Source of the DNA: an uncultured Bacilli bacterium
Lineage (GTDB): Bacteria > Bacillota_I > Bacilli_A > RF39 > UBA660
DNA: 64,000 nucleotides
Assembly (NCBI GenBank): GCA_944332475.1
Contig: CALVKA010000003.1
Location: forward strand, 163,257-227,256
Direction of reading: 5' to 3'
Shown here: positions 1 through 10,169 of the stretch, in pieces
How positions within the stretch are numbered: position 1 is the first letter of the stretch
Layout: every line of letters starts with the position of its first letter
Made by a program: the position numbers and the translations under genes
The notes under the pieces: generated by a model
Seen by the model: the letters and a program-made list of their open reading frames with translations, nothing else
The model's database searches: none
What the model was told of the DNA's origin: nothing

Positions 1-2688
1 TATTTCTTTATCTTCCATATTAGTATCATGATACTTTTTAACTAATCCCAAAATGTAATCAATATTTACATCTATAGATTTAATTAATTCCATTTCAAAT
101 ACAACATCTTCAGAAACATCTGTTTTTTCTCTTTTTGTCTTATTTCTAAAGTCATTATATATTTCAATATAAAGGCTTTGGTAATCTTGTCTATCTCTTT
201 CTGATAACAATTGTTCATCTTTAAATTCATCAAATGAAGATAAAATATTAGTAACCTTTAGTATTGCACCATATAATTTAATAAATTCTTTTTGTGCTTG
301 CTCACCCTGCATTAATTCTCCAGGTACAAATTTGGATGTTAACTTTTCCACTAATTCTTTATATCCTTCAAATCTTTTACCATTTTCTTCTTCATATCCA
401 TAATAATAATCTTTATATGGTTTTAATAAGACTACACCATGTGCATTTTCATCGCCAAATTTAGCAAGGGCTTCGTTTAATCTATCTTCAAGATTTCTAA
501 ACGATACAATATTACCATAAGTTTTTACACTATTTAATATTCTATTGGTACGAGAAAAAGCTTGTATTAAACCATGCCATTTTAAATTTTTATCAACCCA
601 TAATGTATTTAATGCTTTAGCATCAAATCCAGTTAAAAACATATTAGCAACAATTAATATATCGATTTCTCTATTTTTCATTCTTAATGATACATCTTTA
701 TAATAATTTTGAAATTTTTCTGAAGATGTATCATAACTTGTTCCAAACATTTTATTATAATCTTTAATCGCGTTATCTAAGAAAGTTCTATCATCAATAC
801 TTAAATTTTCTGTTGATTCTGAATTTTCATCAATTACACCATCTTCGTTATTTACACCATAGGAATAAATAATTACAACTTTTAAATTACTATTATTCAA
901 GTCTTGTACTTTTTTAAACTCAGTATAATATTCTTTGGCCATCTTAATACTTGAAACAGCAAATATAGAATTAAAGCCATTTATATTCTTTTTGGTCTTA
1001 ATTTCTTCTGTGCTTTGCTTTTTAGCAACATCAACAACATTATCTAATGTAGAATAAACATAAGATTCATTTGTCTTTGTTTTAGTGCTAAAATGCTCAA
1101 TAATATAATTGGTGATTAGATTAATTCTAATTTTATTATCAAATAATTTTTCTTCATCAATATTATAAACTTTTTCATCTTTTATATCATCTCTAATGTC
1201 AACTCTACCAACATATTCATATCTAAAAGGCAAGACATTTTTATCAGCAATGGCATTTACAATTGTATAAGTATGCAATCTCTCTCCAAATACTTGTTCT
1301 GTTGTTTCAGATATTCCTTTAATAGTTCTAGCATTTTCTGGAAATATTGGAGTACCAGTGAATCCGAAAATATAATATTTTTTGAATTTTTTTATAATTG
1401 ATTTATGCATCTCTCCAAATTGGGATCTGTGACATTCATCAAATATAAATACTACATGCTTATTAAACACTTCACTTTCTGTGTTCTTTTTAATAAAAGT
1501 TGATAGCTTTTGAATAGTTGTGATAATGATTTTAGCATTATCATCATACAATTGATTTTCTAATACTTTTGTCGATGTATTTGAATTAGCTGCACCTTCT
1601 TTGAATTTATCATATTCTTTCATTGTTTGATAATCTAAATCTTTTCTATCTACAACGAATAATACTTTATCTATATATGAAAGATTACTAGTTAGTTGTG
1701 ACGTTTTAAAAGATGTTAAGGTTTTTCCTGAACCTGTTGTATGCCAGATATACCCTCCTGCTTTAATAGATCCATAAAGTTTATTATTGTAAGCGATATT
1801 AATTTTATTTAATATCTTTTCTGTTGCGACTATTTGATATGGTCTCATTACAAGTAATTCTTCTTCACTAGTAAAAACACAATATTTTGTTAAAACATTT
1901 AATAAAGTGTGTTTTGTTAAAAATGTCTTAGCAAAGTCAATTAGGTCAGTAATTCCTTTGTTTTTTTGATCTGCCCAATAAGATGTAAATTCAAATGAGT
2001 TAGATTTTCTTTTTATTTTATTATTTATATGAAATTCTCTTGTAGTATTAGAATAATATTTTGTTAGTGTTCCGTTAGAAATAATAAATATTTGTATAAA
2101 GTTATAAAGACCACTTCCGGCCCAGAAAGAATCTCTTTGATATCTTTCTATTTGATTAAATGCCTCTCTTAAATCTACGCCCCTTTTCTTTAATTCAATA
2201 TGCACTAATGGAAGTCCATTTACTAAAATAGTAACATCATACCTGTTATCATAATTACCATCATTATTAACATATTGATTAATAACTTGTAATCTGTTGT
2301 TATGAATATTATTCTTATCAATTAAGTATATATTTCTTTTTTCACCAGAATCTAAAGTTATTTCTTGTTTGTAATCTTCTTGTATTAATCTAGTTTTTTC
2401 TATTATATAATCATTTTTATTAGCAATAACTTTACTGAGGAAAAAATCCCATTCTCCATCTGTAAATTGATAATTATTAAGTTTTTCTAATTGATTTCTT
2501 AGATTTAGAATTAATTCATTTTCACTATGAATTGATAAGTATTCATATCCCTCTTCTACTAACGTATTAATCAATTCTTTTTCTAAAGCAGATTCACTTT
2601 GAAATGATGTTACTACTCTATCTAATGGTTTGTATTCTGCAAGCACTGTCGAATTATCATTTTCACTAATTAAACCTATATTATTCAT
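1..2688 (-). CDS. hsdR: Type I restriction enzyme R subunit HsdR (N-terminal ~895 codons; C-terminus runs off the left window edge)
   Basis: Own translation from ATG at 2686-2688 (minus strand) gives MNNIGLISENDNSTVLAEYKPLDRV..., with Walker A HTTGSGKT and DEAH-type box FDECHRSQ, typical of HsdR. No complete ORF is listed in the ORF track for 1-2688, consistent with one long ORF open at the edge. Start overlaps the stop of the upstream 148-aa ORF (ATGA). Confidence 0.85.
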   Translation of the reverse strand, partial: MNNIGLISENDNSTVLAEYKPLDRVVTSFQSESALEKELINTLVEEGYEYLSIHSENELILNLRNQLEKLNNYQFTDGEWDFFLSKVIANKNDYIIEKTRLIQEDYKQEITLDSGEKRNIYLIDKNNIHNNRLQVINQYVNNDGNYDNRYDVTILVNGLPLVHIELKKRGVDLREAFNQIERYQRDSFWAGSGLYNFIQIFIISNGTLTKYYSNTTREFHINNKIKRKSNSFEFTSYWADQKNKGITDLIDFAKTFLTKHTLLNVLTKYCVFTSEEELLVMRPYQIVATEKILNKINIAYNNKLYGSIKAGGYIWHTTGSGKTLTSFKTSQLTSNLSYIDKVLFVVDRKDLDYQTMKEYDKFKEGAANSNTSTKVLENQLYDDNAKIIITTIQKLSTFIKKNTESEVFNKHVVFIFDECHRSQFGEMHKSIIKKFKKYYIFGFTGTPIFPENARTIKGISETTEQVFGERLHTYTIVNAIADKNVLPFRYEYVGRVDIRDDIKDEKVYNIDEEKLFDNKIRINLITNYIIEHFSTKTKTNESYVYSTLDNVVDVAKKQSTEEIKTKKNINGFNSIFAVSSIKMAKEYYTEFKKVQDLNNSNLKVVIIYSYGVNNEDGVIDENSESTENLSIDDRTFLDNAIKDYNKMFGTSYDTSSEKFQNYYKDVSLRMKNREIDILIVANMFLTGFDAKALNTLWVDKNLKWHGLIQAFSRTNRILNSVKTYGNIVSFRNLEDRLNEALAKFGDENAHGVVLLKPYKDYYYGYEEENGKRFEGYKELVEKLTSKFVPGELMQGEQAQKEFIKLYGAILKVTNILSSFDEFKDEQLLSERDRQDYQSLYIEIYNDFRNKTKREKTDVSEDVVFEMELIKSIDVNIDYILGLVKKYHDTNMEDKEI

Positions 2689-3131
2689 TTTCTTTCACCA
2701 ACAATCTTTTTAATTTCATTTAATATTAAATCCATTCTTTTACCATCTAGCACTTTAGCGTACCAATTATAGTTACGGATATCCTTTAATTCTTTTAAAT
2801 AGTCTGCATTTCTAAAAACCACTACATCACCTAAAGGAACTGGTAATATAAATTCTAAAGTTGGGCCATATTCTAACATTTTTAAATCTGTGTAATCTTG
2901 TTTCATTTCAGTGCAATGTTTAAATGCATTATTAAAGGCTATACATGCATTCTTCAACTCGTCTTCTTTAGTTTTAGGATCTTTTATAAAATTATTAAAC
3001 AGTGCTCCTAATTGGCTGAAGGTATTAGCTGTTTTTCTATATAATGTTAATTCATCAAAATTGCATTTATTTACATATTCTGTTAAATCACTTAATTCTT
3101 TCCTTGCACTTTCTAATAATAATCTATTCAT
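2685..3131 (-). CDS. hypothetical 148-aa protein inserted between the prrC-like gene and hsdR
   Basis: Complete ORF in track; translationally coupled on both sides (2-nt gap upstream, ATGA overlap with hsdR). No recognisable motif. Confidence 0.5.
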   Translation of the reverse strand: MNRLLLESARKELSDLTEYVNKCNFDELTLYRKTANTFSQLGALFNNFIKDPKTKEDELKNACIAFNNAFKHCTEMKQDYTDLKMLEYGPTLEFILPVPLGDVVVFRNADYLKELKDIRNYNWYAKVLDGKRMDLILNEIKKIVGERK

Positions 3132-4221
3132 CTTTTACCTCCATTTTATAATAATTTATAAAATCCATAAATCCTTCTATAAATATTGTTTTTTCATTAC
3201 TTGTCAGCTCAAAATATTCAAACTCTGGCAAATTACCATGGCTATATAAATTGATTAATTTAATTAATTCTTTAGTATATTCTTTCTGTGGTAAACAATC
3301 TTCATATTTTTTATAGCCAAAATAATTTGCTGTCTTTTCTAATAAAATCCTAAACATATTAAAATTTATCTTTTCTAAACTATCATTATTGATAGCTTCA
3401 TTTATTTTTTTTACTAAAATTAAATGATATCCAAAAGGAGAATCACCCTTTTCTTCAAGACAATATTTGTATTTATTTTTTATTAAGACATAGGAATTAA
3501 ATTTAATATAGTTCTCTCTTTTTAGTAAATTGTAAATTGCATTATAAAATAATGCATGATGTGTTGTAATTAAAATACTGGGTCTATCTTCTTCTGTTAA
3601 TTCATTTATCCTTTCAATCAGCTCATATATTTTAACGGCTATATTCATTATTCTTATATCATCAATAGAAGATACAGGGTCATCAATTACAATATATTTA
3701 ATATTGTCAAAAATATCAGTTGATCTATTTTCTTTTTCTTCTTTTAGTTCGTAAATCATGGAATCTATAAATGTGTAAAATATACTCCATATAAAAAGAC
3801 TTTCTTCTGCTTTTGAAATTTTAATATCATAATCATATCCATCTTTAGTTTTAGCACTGAACTCTATTATACCACTTTCTAAATCCATTGATGGTTCAAT
3901 AATATCATCGCAAAATAACTTGAAGTTATCTTCAATTGCTTTTTCTAATCCCTGTTCAGTTATGAACTTAACTATCCAAGAAATGCTATTAATATTCAAA
4001 AATTGCGAATCATTTACCCAGGAAAATTCATCTTGAAATATCGAATTAAAACATAAAACTTTATCTTCCTGTTTCTCCGTAAACATTCTAGAAATTCTTG
4101 TTTTTCCGGTTCCATTGAAAGCATATATCAGATCAACTTTTATTTTTGTACTGAGACTATTAAAATCTTTATTAATTTCATTATATATTTGCTCTATATC
4201 TTCACTTTCTACTTTCTTCAT
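3124..4221 (-). CDS. prrC: PrrC-like anticodon nuclease (ABC-type ATPase N-domain plus C-terminal ACNase domain)
   Basis: Walker A AFNGTGKTRIS near the N-terminus. ABC-like Walker B/D-loop YIVIDDPVSSIDD. C-terminal R-x32-N-x3-H arrangement (MFRILLEK...LINLYSHGN) with a ~37-aa tail, mirroring the Arg320/Asn352/His356 arrangement of E. coli PrrC. Located between hsdS and hsdR exactly as in the E. coli prr locus. Confidence 0.6.
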   Translation of the reverse strand: MKKVESEDIEQIYNEINKDFNSLSTKIKVDLIYAFNGTGKTRISRMFTEKQEDKVLCFNSIFQDEFSWVNDSQFLNINSISWIVKFITEQGLEKAIEDNFKLFCDDIIEPSMDLESGIIEFSAKTKDGYDYDIKISKAEESLFIWSIFYTFIDSMIYELKEEKENRSTDIFDNIKYIVIDDPVSSIDDIRIMNIAVKIYELIERINELTEEDRPSILITTHHALFYNAIYNLLKRENYIKFNSYVLIKNKYKYCLEEKGDSPFGYHLILVKKINEAINNDSLEKINFNMFRILLEKTANYFGYKKYEDCLPQKEYTKELIKLINLYSHGNLPEFEYFELTSNEKTIFIEGFMDFINYYKMEVKDE

Positions 4222-4789
4222 TTTTTAATTCCTCAAAACTCAATAATTTATCTCTATAATATTCATATTGTTTTTTTCTTAATTCTATTTCAGCTGGTAA
4301 TCCTTCAGAAATACCATCAATTAACTTATTAAATTTGTCTAAAATACAAACAATCTTTTCTTGCTCTTCTAAACAAGGTAAATATATTTCAAAATTTTCA
4401 GTTATTGGTAGTGATATTTGTGGCATTGATCCCATTTGACTTCCCATACTTCTAAAATAATTAATATTATTTTTTAAATAGTAATATAGATACTTTACTG
4501 TAATTTGATTTTCACATGTATATGCCCACATTTCATTTTTAAACGTAAATGATTTATCATAGTAAATAAAATCTATTAGTCCTCTTGATTGGACAATAAC
4601 ACAAGGATAGTCAATAATATTAGCTTTTGGGATTTCTTCTATATTGGTGTTTACTGCAGTTTGTCCGCCAGCAAATATTTTTATATTACCATCCTTCTTT
4701 TCAATTTCTTTCATTTTACCAGCTGTTATTGAAGTTCCTTTTACTCTTTTAAAAGCATCACTTAATTTAACTTTTGTATATCCAAACAC
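4202..4789 (-). CDS. HsdS-related half subunit (single target-recognition domain plus C-terminal conserved region), GTG start
   Basis: C-terminus LPAEIELRKKQYEYYRDKLLSFEEL resembles the C-terminal conserved region of the upstream full HsdS (LPAEKELRQQQYEYYRDMLLTFAD). Start is GTG at 4787-4789. The in-frame upstream extension has no stop through the TGTC repeat. Confidence 0.7.
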   Translation of the reverse strand: MFGYTKVKLSDAFKRVKGTSITAGKMKEIEKKDGNIKIFAGGQTAVNTNIEEIPKANIIDYPCVIVQSRGLIDFIYYDKSFTFKNEMWAYTCENQITVKYLYYYLKNNINYFRSMGSQMGSMPQISLPITENFEIYLPCLEEQEKIVCILDKFNKLIDGISEGLPAEIELRKKQYEYYRDKLLSFEELKNEESRK

Positions 4790-4806: not shown

Positions 4807-5989
<1,183 letters not shown>

Positions 5990-6006
<17 letters not shown>

Positions 6007-7564
6007 CCTCTAATTCTCTGATTATCTCTTCTAGTTCTTTTCTTAGTTGTTCTTGTCTAGGAACTATTTCTGCCAATCTTTTGTTTACTTCTTTTATATC
6101 TATTTTTTTCTCATTTAAATTAGTCTTTAAATAAGAGTTTACAGAAATATTATAGTCATTTTCTTTTACTTCTTCATAGGTTGCTAGATAAGATTTATTC
6201 TCTACTTCTTTTCTTTCTTTTAATAAATTAATAATATTATTAATATTTTCATCTGATAGCTTATTTTTATTTGTATTTCTGACAAATTCAGTTGAGGCAT
6301 CTACAAATAGAATATTATTATCAGTTTTATTTTTCTTTAGGATTAAAATGCAAGTAGCAATAGTGGTTCCAAAAAATAAATCTGGTGGTAATTGAATAAC
6401 TGTATCTACATAGTTATTATCAATCATATACTTTCTTATTTTTTGTTCTGCTCCACCTCTATATAGTACTCCAGGAAATTCAACTATTGCAGCTGTTCCT
6501 TTTGGAGAAAGCCATGATAACATATGCATTGTAAATGCTAAATCTGCTTTAGAGGAAGGTGCTAATACTCCTGCTGGTGAAAATCTTTCATCATTTATTA
6601 ATAATGGATTTTCTTTTCCAGCCCAGTGAATTGAATATGGAGGATTAGATACTATTGCATCAAAAGGTTCATCATCCCAGTGTTGTGGATGAATTAATGT
6701 ATCTCCCCTTGCTATATTAAAATTATTATAATTTATATTATGTAAAAACATATTTATTCTAGCTAAGTTATATGTTGTTAAATTTATTTCTTGTCCAAAG
6801 AATCCTTGTTTAACATTTTCTTTTCCTAATATCTTAGCAAACTTTAACAATAAACCTCCTGATCCACATGCTGGATCATATACTTTATTAACTGAGGTTT
6901 TATCCATAATAACAATTCTAGCAAGTAATTCTCCTACTTCTTGGGGAGTAAAGAATTCGCCTCCCGATTTACCTGCAGAAGATGCATACATTGTCATCAA
7001 AAATTCATAAGCATCTCCAAATAAATCTATATTATTATCTTGGTAATCTCCTAATTTTAAATCACCAATAGCATTAAGCATCTTAACTAATTTTTGATTT
7101 CTTTCATCTACTGTATTTCCTAATTTATTATCTATTGTAAAATCGTCAAATAAACCTTTTACATCATTCTCTGATGCTGTTCCTCTAGCAGATGCTTCAA
7201 TGTTATTAAAGACATTTGAAATTGTTACATTTAAATTTTCATTTTGGTCAGCATTTTTTCGGATATTGCAAAATAATTCACTTGGTAAAATGAAGAATCC
7301 TTTTTCTTCTAGTATTTGCAGCTTTCCCATTATTGCTTCTTCATCAGTTATATTTCTATATTCAAAATTAGAAATACCTGCTTTTCTTTGATTTTCATTA
7401 ACATAGTGTTCTATATTTTCAGAAATAAATCTATAGAATAATAATCCTAATACATATTGTTTAAAGTCCCATCCATCTACAGCTCCTCTTAATTCATTTG
7501 CTATTTTCCATATAGTTTTATGTACTTCTTCACGTTCTTGTTCTTTTTTGTTACTCATTTTCAC
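5990..7564 (-). CDS. hsdM: Type I R-M N6-adenine DNA methyltransferase subunit HsdM
   Basis: 524 aa with the NPPYS catalytic motif and an HsdM-typical N-terminus. RBS GAGGTG upstream. Confidence 0.9.
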
Positions 7565-7592: not shown

Positions 7593-8279
7593 TTATCTTC
7601 CAAGTATATCCCAGGCTGTAAGAATACCTATAACTTTTTCTTCTTTACCATTTTCTGTAACTAAAACACATGATAACTTACTTCCTTTTTTAAATTCATT
7701 AATAAATTCTAAACAAATATCATCATACAATCTATTTCTACTTGCAAATTTTATGATTTCTTTTGATTTGTTAAAACTTATAAAGTCTTTAATGTCCTTA
7801 AACAATGTATTTTCATCTATTTCTACAATTTTATTTTCATATAAATAATTAAATAATACCCCTTCACTAAAAATTCCTACTAATTTATTGTTGTCATAAA
7901 TTGGAATGTGAGTATAATTATTTTCCATCATCTTTTTCATTTTTTCTCTAACATTATCATTTAAATTAGCAGCATAAACGTTTTTGGTTGACTTATCATA
8001 AACTTTAAATGGATGCTTTATTTCTTCGATAATTCCATCTAATTTTTTTATCATATCTTCTCCATAAAAAATGAATTCATTTTCATAACTATTATGTGCT
8101 ATCCTATTTCTACACACTCTGCAAAAATCAATAAAGTCATATTGTGAGTAATAAGGTTCTCTATGTTTATTTTTTAATTCTTTAATCTTTTCTATTAATT
8201 TTTCATCCTTGTTTTCTTCATTTATTGTAAGTTTTTCAAATTCTAAAAATTTTCTTCTAAAAATTTCTGTGTTTTCCAT
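7593..8279 (-). CDS. HEPN-like (Rx4H) N-terminal domain fused to a tandem CBS-domain pair
   Basis: CRNRIAHN (R-x4-H) in the N-terminal ~110 aa. C-terminal ~120 aa has two CBS-like repeats (HIPIYDNNKLVGIFSEGVL... and SCVLVTENGKEEKVIGILTAWDIL). Lies 28 nt upstream of hsdM, same strand. Confidence 0.45.
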   Translation of the reverse strand: MENTEIFRRKFLEFEKLTINEENKDEKLIEKIKELKNKHREPYYSQYDFIDFCRVCRNRIAHNSYENEFIFYGEDMIKKLDGIIEEIKHPFKVYDKSTKNVYAANLNDNVREKMKKMMENNYTHIPIYDNNKLVGIFSEGVLFNYLYENKIVEIDENTLFKDIKDFISFNKSKEIIKFASRNRLYDDICLEFINEFKKGSKLSCVLVTENGKEEKVIGILTAWDILGR

Positions 8280-8308
8280 CGTTATTATTAACTCCGTTTC
8301 ATATAGTA

Positions 8309-9139
8309 TTAAAATAATTCTTTCACAATTAAATCTTCTGAATGTAAATTATTATTTTTACCTAATAACAAATTCTCATAAAATTTAATTAAATAAATTT
8401 TATCCTCTTTTATATTTAAGTAATTATTGAAATAATTACTTCTTACTAGTGCATTTCTAAAATATACTGATTTATCTTTAAATAATGAGTTATCTGCTTT
8501 GTATCCAAGGCTAGTTAAATATTTTTCTATGAATACTGCTGTTGTTCTAGTGTTACCTTCTCTAAAGGGATGTACTTGCCAGATATTAGATGTAAAATCA
8601 GTAATATTTTTAATGACTTCTACAATATTCATATTTTTGTAGTCTTTCTCTTTTTCTAGACTAATATCATATTCTAATGATTCTGTTAATGTTTTAGAAT
8701 CTCCATAAGCAACTGAATCATTATTTAATATTTTTTCATGTTTCGAAAAATCTATTTTTCTAAACTCTCCTGCAAATTCATAAACATCTTGAAATAAATA
8801 TTTATGAATATATTTTAGATAATCTACTGATAATTCAAAATTATCTTGATTTAATAATTCAACAATTCTCATAGATACAAAATCACATTCTAATTCATTA
8901 TGATTAATATTCTTTTCTTTTGTGGTGTAATATTCTTTTAGACTTTGTTCTACTTCTTTTAGTGTTAATTCACCTAAGATATTTTTTTCTTTTAGTTGTT
9001 CTAAGTATTTAGATGGTTTTAAATTATCTACTTGTTGTAATCCTATAGCCATATCCCATTGTAACTGTTTTACATATCCTTTGGGATATGTTTTTTCTTG
9101 ATATGGATTTAGGCTGGAATCTAGTTCTTTTTCGCTCAT
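8309..9139 (-). CDS. Fic/Doc family protein (degenerate Fic motif HPFREGNTRTT)
   Basis: Fic core motif HxFx(D/E)GN(G/T)R present as HPFREGNTR; 276 aa. Confidence 0.75.
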   Translation of the reverse strand: MSEKELDSSLNPYQEKTYPKGYVKQLQWDMAIGLQQVDNLKPSKYLEQLKEKNILGELTLKEVEQSLKEYYTTKEKNINHNELECDFVSMRIVELLNQDNFELSVDYLKYIHKYLFQDVYEFAGEFRKIDFSKHEKILNNDSVAYGDSKTLTESLEYDISLEKEKDYKNMNIVEVIKNITDFTSNIWQVHPFREGNTRTTAVFIEKYLTSLGYKADNSLFKDKSVYFRNALVRSNYFNNYLNIKEDKIYLIKFYENLLLGKNNNLHSEDLIVKELF

Positions 9140-9165
9140 TTTATCACACCCAACATTTCTATTTC

Positions 9166-9194
9166 ATTATATCAGTTTTTTTATTATTAGTAAA
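9166..9194 (-). promoter_or_regulatory. sigma-A-like promoter for the fic-HEPN/CBS-hsdMS operon (-35 TTTACT, 17-nt spacer, -10 TATAAT)
   Basis: Minus-strand TTTACT at 9189-9194 and TATAAT at 9166-9171, spacer exactly 17 nt, ~25 nt upstream of the fic start. Confidence 0.35.
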
Positions 9195-9229
9195 TTTAGC
9201 ATTTTTACTAATTGGTAAAAAATGGCAGT

Positions 9230-9967
9230 TTATTCTATATCTAAGTCTTCTTTATAATTTATACAATTATTTAAAATATTTAAAAGTTCTAATTTCAATT
9301 CACAATATTTATTTCTTTTTACATACCTTTTATCAATCTCCATTAGCATTTTATCAGTGTATTCATACAATATATAAATTAAATACGTTAAATTTTCCAT
9401 CCAAACAATTCTAGTTTTTGATAAATAATTATTATCATGAAGATATTCACTTAATGCTTCAAAATCATTATATATTTTTATATCTATTAATTTACATACA
9501 TCTTTAAAATTATAATTTTTTAATTTTACAGCATTTTTAATCCAACTATAAGGTCTTTGATCATCAAAACAATCACAAGAAATATTAAGAAAATCACATA
9601 ATCCTTCATAATCTTTTTTTATTCTGCTATGATATGGTTCGTTGCCGATTTTTTTCATAGCTTTGTATGCTCCATGTAAATACCAATATTTCCATATTTC
9701 TTTTTGTTTATATTTTTTTATTATATAAAAACAAACATAATTTTCAATCATAATTCGTAATTTACATGCTAAACCATTATAGTCTTCTATTAATATACAT
9801 GATAAAGCTTTTTGTAAATAGTCTAAATGTTTTTTTAAAAATAGGTTTTTTATGCCGTTATAGTCAGAAGTAATCATACAATACTCTCTTTTTGTCTGCT
9901 CAATATAATCAATATACTTTTTTAGTGCTTTTATTTCTTCTTTTTCTATATTGTAAATGTTATCCAA
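9230..9967 (-). CDS. hypothetical 245-aa protein (Cys-rich, no recognised domain)
   Basis: Complete ORF; first gene of the island next to tRNA-His. Confidence 0.5.
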   Translation of the reverse strand: MDNIYNIEKEEIKALKKYIDYIEQTKREYCMITSDYNGIKNLFLKKHLDYLQKALSCILIEDYNGLACKLRIMIENYVCFYIIKKYKQKEIWKYWYLHGAYKAMKKIGNEPYHSRIKKDYEGLCDFLNISCDCFDDQRPYSWIKNAVKLKNYNFKDVCKLIDIKIYNDFEALSEYLHDNNYLSKTRIVWMENLTYLIYILYEYTDKMLMEIDKRYVKRNKYCELKLELLNILNNCINYKEDLDIE

Positions 9968-10092: not shown

Positions 10093-10169
10093 TGGGGCGT
10101 CGTATGAGGATCGAACTCATGCATACTGGTGCCACAAACCAGCGTGTTAACCACTTCACCAACGGCGCC
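10093..10169 (-). tRNA. tRNA-His (anticodon GTG) with encoded G-1 and 3' CCA
   Basis: Minus-strand read TGGCGCCGTTGGTGAAGTGGTTAACACGCTGGTTTGTGGCACCAGTATGCATGAGTTCGATCCTCATACGACGCCCCA. Anticodon stem CTGGT/ACCAG with loop TTGTGGC (GTG). T-loop TTCGATC. G-1:C73 pair diagnostic of tRNA-His. Confidence 0.85.

Follow-up and report, generated by a model that had tools for sequence, protein, structure and literature searches.

The stretch of DNA analysed here, called the window throughout, comprises 64,000 nucleotides of contig CALVKA010000003.1 (positions 163,257 to 227,256) from an uncultured Bacilli bacterium. Its left end falls inside a Type I restriction operon on the minus strand, in which the order of transcription is hsdM, hsdS, a half-size hsdS, a homologue of the anticodon nuclease gene prrC, a gene of 148 codons that we call p148, and hsdR. 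Comparison of the window with 41 other loci shows that the junction between hsdS and hsdR is a cargo slot in which prrC and p148 are independent cassettes, p148 being the one adjacent to hsdR. We suggest that p148 partners HsdR as an accessory protein with a role in defence. The genes and signals of the operon are as follows.

1..2688, minus strand: 5' part of hsdR, the Type IC restriction subunit; ATG at 2688..2686, 896 codons translated, continuing past the left end of the window
2685..3131, minus strand: p148, encoding a 148-aa protein of an orphan family; open reading frame (ORF) and junctions read from the sequence
3138..3142, minus strand: GGAGG, Shine-Dalgarno sequence of p148, within the final prrC codons and 6 nt ahead of the p148 ATG
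3124..4221, minus strand: prrC homologue (365 aa), with a predicted N-terminal ABC-type NTPase domain and a predicted C-terminal HEPN-type anticodon-nuclease domain
4202..4789, minus strand: half-size hsdS (195 aa), with one target-recognition domain and a conserved region; Pfam Methylase_S, E=1.8e-17
4807..6006, minus strand: hsdS (399 aa), with two target-recognition domains and the C-terminal end QTDRQTDRQTDKQ; Pfam Methylase_S in two stretches, E=3.4e-32
5990..7564, minus strand: hsdM (524 aa); Pfam N6_Mtase, E=1.6e-113, and HsdM_N

The ORFs of 365 and 148 aa are present on the minus strand as described in the first-pass annotation of this DNA, which had also proposed that the smaller gene is translationally coupled between prrC and hsdR. 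The 3' end of the half-size hsdS overlaps the start of prrC by 20 nt, prrC overlaps p148 by 8 nt, and the p148 stop codon (2687..2685) overlaps the hsdR ATG (2688..2686) by 4 nt in the form ATGA. With overlapping junctions and a Shine-Dalgarno sequence, the coupled layout is therefore real. The DNA of the window is only about 25% G+C, and since long ORFs are improbable at this composition, both ORFs are unlikely to have arisen by chance. An antisense ORF of 112 aa at 2911..3249 is likely a by-product of the AT-rich sequence, and a promoter scan was uninformative in such DNA (75 sites observed, 82 expected). A full-length copy of HsdR that is 99% identical to that of the window is found in another locus (L009); it is 1022 aa long, with HSDR_N, ResIII, SWI2_SNF2, T1R_D3-like and EcoR124_C domains. 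By its sequence, and with EcoR124_C on HsdR, the surrounding enzyme is an EcoprrI-like Type IC system.

The PrrC homologue

The 365-aa protein had been read as a PrrC-type anticodon nuclease, and the profile searches bear this out. It matches the PADLOC PrrC profile over nearly its full length (E=1e-83, 279 bits; residues 12-361 against profile positions 20-347 of 372) and Pfam AAA_13 above the cut-off. An E. coli plasmid locus annotated as hsdM-hsdS-'anticodon nuclease'-hsdR encodes a 396-aa protein with the published PrrC (LARP) peptide KYGDSNKSFSY, to which the window protein is 32% identical over 355 residues (BLASTP, E=4e-55). Thousands of PrrC homologues were found, and the family has more than 5000 members. 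Judged from its sequence, the 365-aa protein is an ordinary member of this family of ABC-ATPase/anticodon-nuclease proteins, and a PrrC in a Type IC operon is already known biology.

The ATPase motifs are conserved. Walker A (NGTGKT) and Walker B with the D-loop (IVIDDPVSSIDD) are present, as had been noted from the sequence, at residues 36-41 and 177-188, and are accompanied by a signature-like KISKAEES (KISKxEES) and a TTHH switch histidine. Residues A34-T41, K134/S136/E139/E140, D180-D188 and T220-H221-H222 are invariant in 22 homologues and align with E. coli PrrC. The catalytic triad of E. coli PrrC is Arg320-Glu324-His356 (Blanga-Kanfi et al., PMC1484252). In the BLASTP alignment, residues of the window protein correspond to those of E. 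coli PrrC as follows.

R291 to R320: catalytic triad
E295 to E324: catalytic triad
K296 to K325: follows the Glu of the triad
H328 to H356: catalytic triad
F263 and Y265 to F292 and Y294: recognition segment
D260 to D287: recognition segment

R291, E295 and H328 are invariant among the 22 homologues, which extend to 42% identity. The first-pass annotation had taken an R-x32-N-x3-H arrangement for the catalytic Arg/Asn/His spacing. The spacing itself holds (R291-x32-N324-x3-H328), and the R, N and H are all invariant in the same homologues; the catalytic label does not hold, the triad being R291/E295/H328, and N324 (E. coli N352) is invariant yet outside the published triad. In the tRNA-Lys recognition segment (E. 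coli 284-294, with Asp287, Phe292 and Tyr294) the key residues align and the spacing from Phe/Tyr to Arg is the same in the two proteins, while the loop itself is two residues shorter in the window (GDSPFGY) than in E. coli (GDSNKSFSY). The HEPN-motif Arg349 of E. coli corresponds to Lys321. Structure prediction of the C-terminal domain, proposed earlier as a check on the PrrC assignment, supports it: residues 230-365 were modelled (pLDDT 77) as a beta-hairpin followed by a four-helix bundle that looks like a HEPN fold, in agreement with the published HEPN assignment of PrrC. A search of the PDB sequences found no PrrC structure.

The locus had been likened to E. coli prr (EcoprrI), where the same order hsdM-hsdS-prrC-hsdR and overlapping junctions are indeed found. 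Identity between the two loci is 54% for HsdM, 45% for HsdR and 32% for PrrC, and the PrrC proteins have in common the ATPase motifs, the R-x3-E-K...H catalytic residues and the F/Y-to-Arg spacing. Unlike E. coli prr, the window has an additional gene of 148 codons between prrC and hsdR, an additional half-size hsdS and an hsdS controlled by a repeat. Its host is a low-GC, spore-forming gut Firmicute in which, unlike in E. coli, activators such as T4 Stp are not expected. The PrrC part of the operon would extend the textbook 'restriction guardian' to uncultured low-GC gut Firmicutes.

RloC, a wobble-nucleotide-excising tRNase, also combines an ABC-ATPase with a HEPN anticodon nuclease and matches Pfam AAA_13. 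A paper on RloC (PMC3458546) describes a long Rad50-like coiled-coil/zinc-hook region and only rare linkage to restriction-modification (R-M) systems. An RloC identity was rejected for the window protein, which at 365 aa is collinear with PrrC homologues of 355-380 aa, has no insert and is embedded in an hsd operon.

A cargo slot between hsdS and hsdR

Homologues of p148 (n=41) are 59-96% identical to it, all about 148 aa long, and have 42 invariant residues. Pairwise ratios of non-synonymous to synonymous substitution rates (dN/dS) within clades are 0.07-0.26. This conservation indicates that p148 is a real gene under purifying selection. The family is small: an exhaustive search with a hidden Markov model against 1.84 billion representative proteins gave 18 matches (clusters), which are family members, fragments or low-complexity noise, and none of these 18 is fused to a known domain. 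No match to p148 was found in Pfam (including all 33 members searched at E<=10), in NCBIfam or in PHROGs. In PADLOC v2, including its PDC candidates, the window protein has no match at E<=0.1, and two distant members have none at E<=0.01. A profile search of PDB sequences returned just designed helical repeats at E>0.1, fold comparison of the p148 model with the PDB gave no meaningful match, and a Foldseek search of viral structures had no match at E<0.8. No homologue was found by tblastn against PLSDB plasmids and INPHARED phages or by a scan of IMG/VR, and no source in a look-up of the clusters names the protein.

The AlphaFold2 model of p148 (pLDDT 87) is of the alpha/beta type and consists of three long helices, a beta-hairpin and three short helices. 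The protein is predicted to be soluble and about neutral, with a net charge close to 0 and an isoelectric point of 7.6 in the window (4.7-9.3 over the family). Its most conserved segment is K60-N61...F66-N67-N68-A-F70-K71-H72, in which N68, K71 and H72 are invariant and N67 nearly so; other conserved polar residues are D102, N108, N120, Y124, K131, R132 and D134.

Several identities were tried and rejected. A piece or duplicate of HsdR or HsdM is disfavoured by hhalign probabilities of 0.1-0.3% against both subunits, and HsdR remains complete (1022 aa) whether or not p148 is present. Alignment to PrrC by hhalign, with a single sequence and with a profile, gave 1-6% probability in inconsistent registers, and the 'PFG' likeness between APFGDVV of p148 and SPFGYHL of PrrC (1.3%, inconsistent register) was dismissed as chance. 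A DNA-mimic anti-restriction protein of the Ocr/ArdA kind was also rejected, as p148 is not strongly acidic and no phage or plasmid homologues were found. In one 151-aa predicted protein (P0054), the last ~25 residues of p148 follow a helicase-like N-terminal fragment (…GLTATP…); this protein is probably a chimera of assembly or recombination.

The genomic context of p148 was compared in 42 loci, the window and 41 others, of which 39 were retrieved through p148 and two through PrrC; many are near-duplicates from different metagenomes and the set amounts to about 15 sequence types, so the counts overstate the independence of the loci. In 41 of the 42 the stop codon of p148 overlaps the start of hsdR, by 4, 8 or 11 nt. 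The upstream neighbour in these 41 varies.

hsdS directly: 24 loci (L001-8, L017, L028-39, L042-44)
prrC: 12 loci (window, L009-12, L018-19, L027, L045-48)
putative membrane ORF of 168-176 aa: 3 loci (L015, L016, L026)
deletion scar retaining just the final 22 nt of prrC: 2 loci (L013, L014)

The 148-aa gene is thus conserved, which had been named as a test of the earlier proposal; the co-occurrence with prrC that was also looked for is confined to the 12 loci above. In L013 and L014, which lack prrC, the 22 nt 5' of the p148 ATG still match the 3' end of that gene exactly (L013:2500-2545), hsdM is called as a 705-aa ORF and only remnants of hsdS are left; these two loci appear to be decayed derivatives of an operon with both prrC and p148. 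Conversely, PrrC homologues 77%, 68% and 48% identical to that of the window sit directly before HsdRs 88%, 87% and 72% identical to that of the window with no p148 between them, and the E. coli prr locus has no p148 either.

The exchange of cassettes is seen directly in one pair of loci. L042 and L022 are 94% identical at the nucleotide level over 5.8 kb, from the start of hsdR through a GmrSD-like gene and a Dam methylase gene, and 93% identical across the final 58 nt of hsdS. Between these matching flanks, L042 has p148 and L022 has prrC in the same slot. Divergence of p148 also does not follow that of its neighbour: p148 proteins only 41-43% identical lie beside HsdRs that are 87-89% identical, and p148 proteins 59-64% identical lie beside HsdRs that are 59-68% identical. 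This uncoupled divergence, together with the low dN/dS within clades, therefore points to exchange of old alleles and not to co-evolution with HsdR.

Across these Type IC operons, the junction between hsdS and hsdR serves as a slot for cargo, and prrC, p148 or a small putative membrane protein, or more than one of them, may be found there. As cassettes, prrC and p148 are independent, occurring alone or in tandem, and wherever p148 is docked it is the one next to hsdR. By its neighbourhoods p148 is tied to hsdR and not to PrrC.

The ORF of 168-176 aa with hydrophobic N-terminal helices that lies between hsdS and p148 (L015:6459-6989, L016:6482-6988, and upstream of p148 in L026) matched nothing in Pfam or PADLOC. 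With it the slot has three kinds of cargo, this one at the position held by prrC in the window. Two unannotated ORFs, of 265 aa (L001:6004-6801) and 213 aa (L020:4857-5498), lie between hsdM and hsdS and likewise have no match in Pfam or PADLOC; that junction too seems to accept cargo.

Possible roles of p148

The explanation we favour, at a probability of roughly 0.6, is that of an EcoprrI-like Type IC operon whose hsdS-hsdR slot carries independent prrC and p148 cassettes, with p148 as a defence-type accessory that partners HsdR. If it behaves like its E. coli homologue, the PrrC of the window would be held silent by the restriction enzyme and, when a phage blocks restriction, would cut the anticodon loop of tRNA, its ABC-type NTPase domain serving as sensor and its HEPN-type domain as RNase. 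Docked on hsdR by the stop/start overlap, p148 would be produced together with HsdR. It is an optional module, exchanged independently of hsdR and able to fill the slot of prrC. Working together with HsdR or by way of it, p148 would most likely serve as a sensor or effector that supports restriction or widens its reach. The conserved surface around N68-x2-K71-H72, preceded by N67, is a candidate functional site. A defence role is proposed because of the embedding of p148, its equivalence with prrC in the slot, its patchy distribution and the uncoupled divergence that suggests allele shuffling; there is precedent in the frequent defence function of genes found inside Type I R-M operons.

Other genes embedded in Type I systems (C. 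jejuni rlo, V. cholerae TgvAB and the 'guilt-by-embedding' families of Payne et al. 2024) resemble p148 in being non-R-M, patchy and exchangeable. Unlike them, p148 has no PADLOC v2 match, is a single small protein with no recognisable domain and always lies directly 5' of hsdR with an overlap. Payne et al. 2024 list 3,231 embedded families of uncharacterised type across BREX, DISARM and Type I R-M systems. Against this background p148 is one more uncharacterised family, with nothing in evidence to make it categorically new, although its strict docking on hsdR is unusual. It is nevertheless a conserved, hsdR-coupled cassette, neither noise nor an accessory of PrrC, and a well-defined candidate for a novel accessory against phages or a novel regulator of Type I restriction.

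Several points weigh against the defence-partner explanation. Embedding is guilt by association only, and tight coupling to hsdR fits a restriction regulator equally well. No domain, profile or fold match of p148 rises above noise, and hence no biochemical function can be assigned. The redundancy of the 42 loci reduces the force of the counts. The most divergent p148 (L041:598-1041, ~40-41% identity) lies on a 1.3-kb contig with no hsdR alongside. A small Cys-rich ORF precedes it and a terminator-like hairpin comes after it; this copy apparently stands alone, outside the hsd context, and the p148 fold may thus work alone outside hsd operons. For PrrC, latency, mode of activation and substrate are assumptions carried over from E. 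coli, and the anticodon-recognition loop, shorter by two residues in the alignment, counts on the same side.

The main rival, which we consider unlikely, is that p148 regulates HsdR, either by alleviating restriction or by controlling assembly. Synthesised immediately before HsdR, it would bind the subunit and delay or dampen restriction, which would protect the host chromosome when a mobile hsd operon enters a new cell or when a phase-variable hsdS switches specificity. The obligatory stop/start overlap in 41 of 42 loci speaks for this reading, and several host operons lie on integrative or mobilisable elements, with replication-organiser, IstB-like, integrase or relaxase genes. In two p148-bearing lineages, moreover, hsdS is switched from split to fused and back by repeats of variable length, which would create a need for self-protection. 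However, these repeats occur in just 2 of the ~15 sequence types, giving no general link between p148 and a repeat-variable hsdS. Close HsdRs (87-88% identical) do without p148, one homologue (L041) is outside any hsd context, and the interchange of p148 and prrC in one slot suits a cargo gene better than a housekeeping regulator.

Less likely still is a highly diverged, minimal HEPN-like RNase or toxin, that is, another latent effector aimed at RNA and kept in check by the Type I enzyme, comparable to the C-terminal domain of PrrC without its ATPase. HEPN genes are commonly linked to R-M operons, and N67-N68-A-F-K71-H72 falls close to the end of long helix 3, the place at which canonical HEPN domains have R-[N/D/H]-x3-H and some HEPN families lack the Arg. 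Like the minimal HEPN toxins (HEPN-MNT, YutE/DUF86, Las1 HEPN), p148 is a small helical bundle with a polar-x3-His near the end of helix 3. Unlike them, it lacks the defining Arg, and with it the Rx4-6H motif at the end of helix 3, has a beta-hairpin and three short helices after the motif, and has neither an adjacent antitoxin nor a nucleotidyltransferase. No HEPN family of Pfam was matched by the 33 p148 members even at E<=10, the profile-profile comparison with PrrC was negative as given above, and bundles that are not HEPN score equally well against p148.

A bolder form of the defence-partner explanation, which we regard as doubtful, would make p148 the founder of a new class of small HsdR-docked guardians, either minimal Arg-less HEPN-like RNases or sensors that bind the restriction subunit, firing or re-arming restriction when a phage disables the Type I enzyme. 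If so, a single restriction enzyme would be backed in the operon of the window by two stacked safeguards, PrrC and p148, that differ in mechanism.

The first-pass annotation had suggested that p148 might be a regulator of the latent nuclease or a second effector. A dedicated PrrC partner, whether regulator or co-effector, is very improbable and largely excluded by distribution: the clades nearest the window do have prrC directly upstream with the 8-nt overlap (window, L009-12, L018-19, L045, L027, L046-48), but 30 of the 42 p148 loci lack prrC, PrrC homologues at 48-77% identity and E. coli PrrC do without p148, the >5000 members of the PrrC family stand against ~18 clusters of p148, and the two genes are interchangeable in one slot (L042 and L022). 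A second effector is possible, only as an independent module and not as an accessory of PrrC.

Variable hsdS repeats and flanking genes

The 3' end of the window hsdS contains a perfect tetranucleotide repeat, and a second p148-bearing lineage has a dinucleotide repeat in the middle of hsdS.

4815..4849: perfect (GACA)n repeat at the 3' end of hsdS; Tandem Repeats Finder counts 8.8 copies with 100% identity
L005:7393-7414, L006:7385-7414, L007:2070-2091 and L008:2238-2265: (AC)n repeat in the middle of hsdS

With 8 GACA units, as in the window, the hsdS ORF stops after QTDRQTDRQTDKQ. In a near-identical metagenome locus (L010) with 15-16 units (L010:111-174), hsdS reads in frame into the 195-aa half-size hsdS, and the same holds for L009, which has at least 12 units (L009:1-48). 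The (GACA)n repeat is likely a phase-variation switch between a split HsdS and a fused one predicted to have three recognition domains. In the second lineage the (AC)n repeat has 11, 14 or 15 units and toggles hsdS between a single 428-aa ORF, seen in L006, and a pair of 242-244 and 168 aa. Type IC HsdS subunits that are phase-variable or truncated are familiar from N. gonorrhoeae NgoAV and from deletion forms of EcoDXXI and EcoR124I. The window hsdS resembles these in that a simple repeat toggles the number of recognition domains, and differs from them in that (GACA)n joins a complete two-domain hsdS to a third, half-size hsdS; the fused three-domain product is unusual. Control of hsdS splitting and fusion by repeats, in the same operons that carry the cassettes, is relevant to epigenetic phase variation in gut bacteria.

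Two further repeats were noted in the hsdS genes. The conserved region at the centre of hsdS contains three perfect copies of a 12-bp repeat (5509..5544), which encode LEAELEAELEAE. EcoR124I and EcoR124II differ in a similar repeat that governs spacer length, and by analogy the number of copies here could determine the spacer of the recognition site. A direct repeat of ~35-43 nt (4247..4289 and 4885..4927) is 83-91% identical between its copies, which are 638 bp apart. The duplicated conserved regions of HsdS (C-terminal, in hsdS and the half-size hsdS) were the sole repeats shown by the repeat search, and this pair is plausible as a recombination substrate for deleting or swapping the half-size hsdS.

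Upstream of hsdM and on the same strand (7593..9967) are a CBS-domain gene, a Fic gene and a weakly DUF5677-like gene. The Fic gene matches the PADLOC candidate PDC-S72 (E=6e-81), and Fic/Doc genes are published neighbours of PrrC and RloC. Beyond these genes lies a tRNA-His gene at 10093..10168, the sole match of an Rfam scan, followed by the spore-coat genes cotJB and cotJC. The block formed by the CBS, Fic and DUF5677-like genes and the hsd operon at a tRNA gene resembles a defence island; L018 has the same cotJ flank without these three genes. The host is taken to be a spore-forming low-GC Firmicute because the cotJB and cotJC genes are present, and the related loci derive from gut metagenomes and from metagenome-assembled genomes named Candidatus Coprosoma, uncultured Bacilli and uncultured Clostridium.

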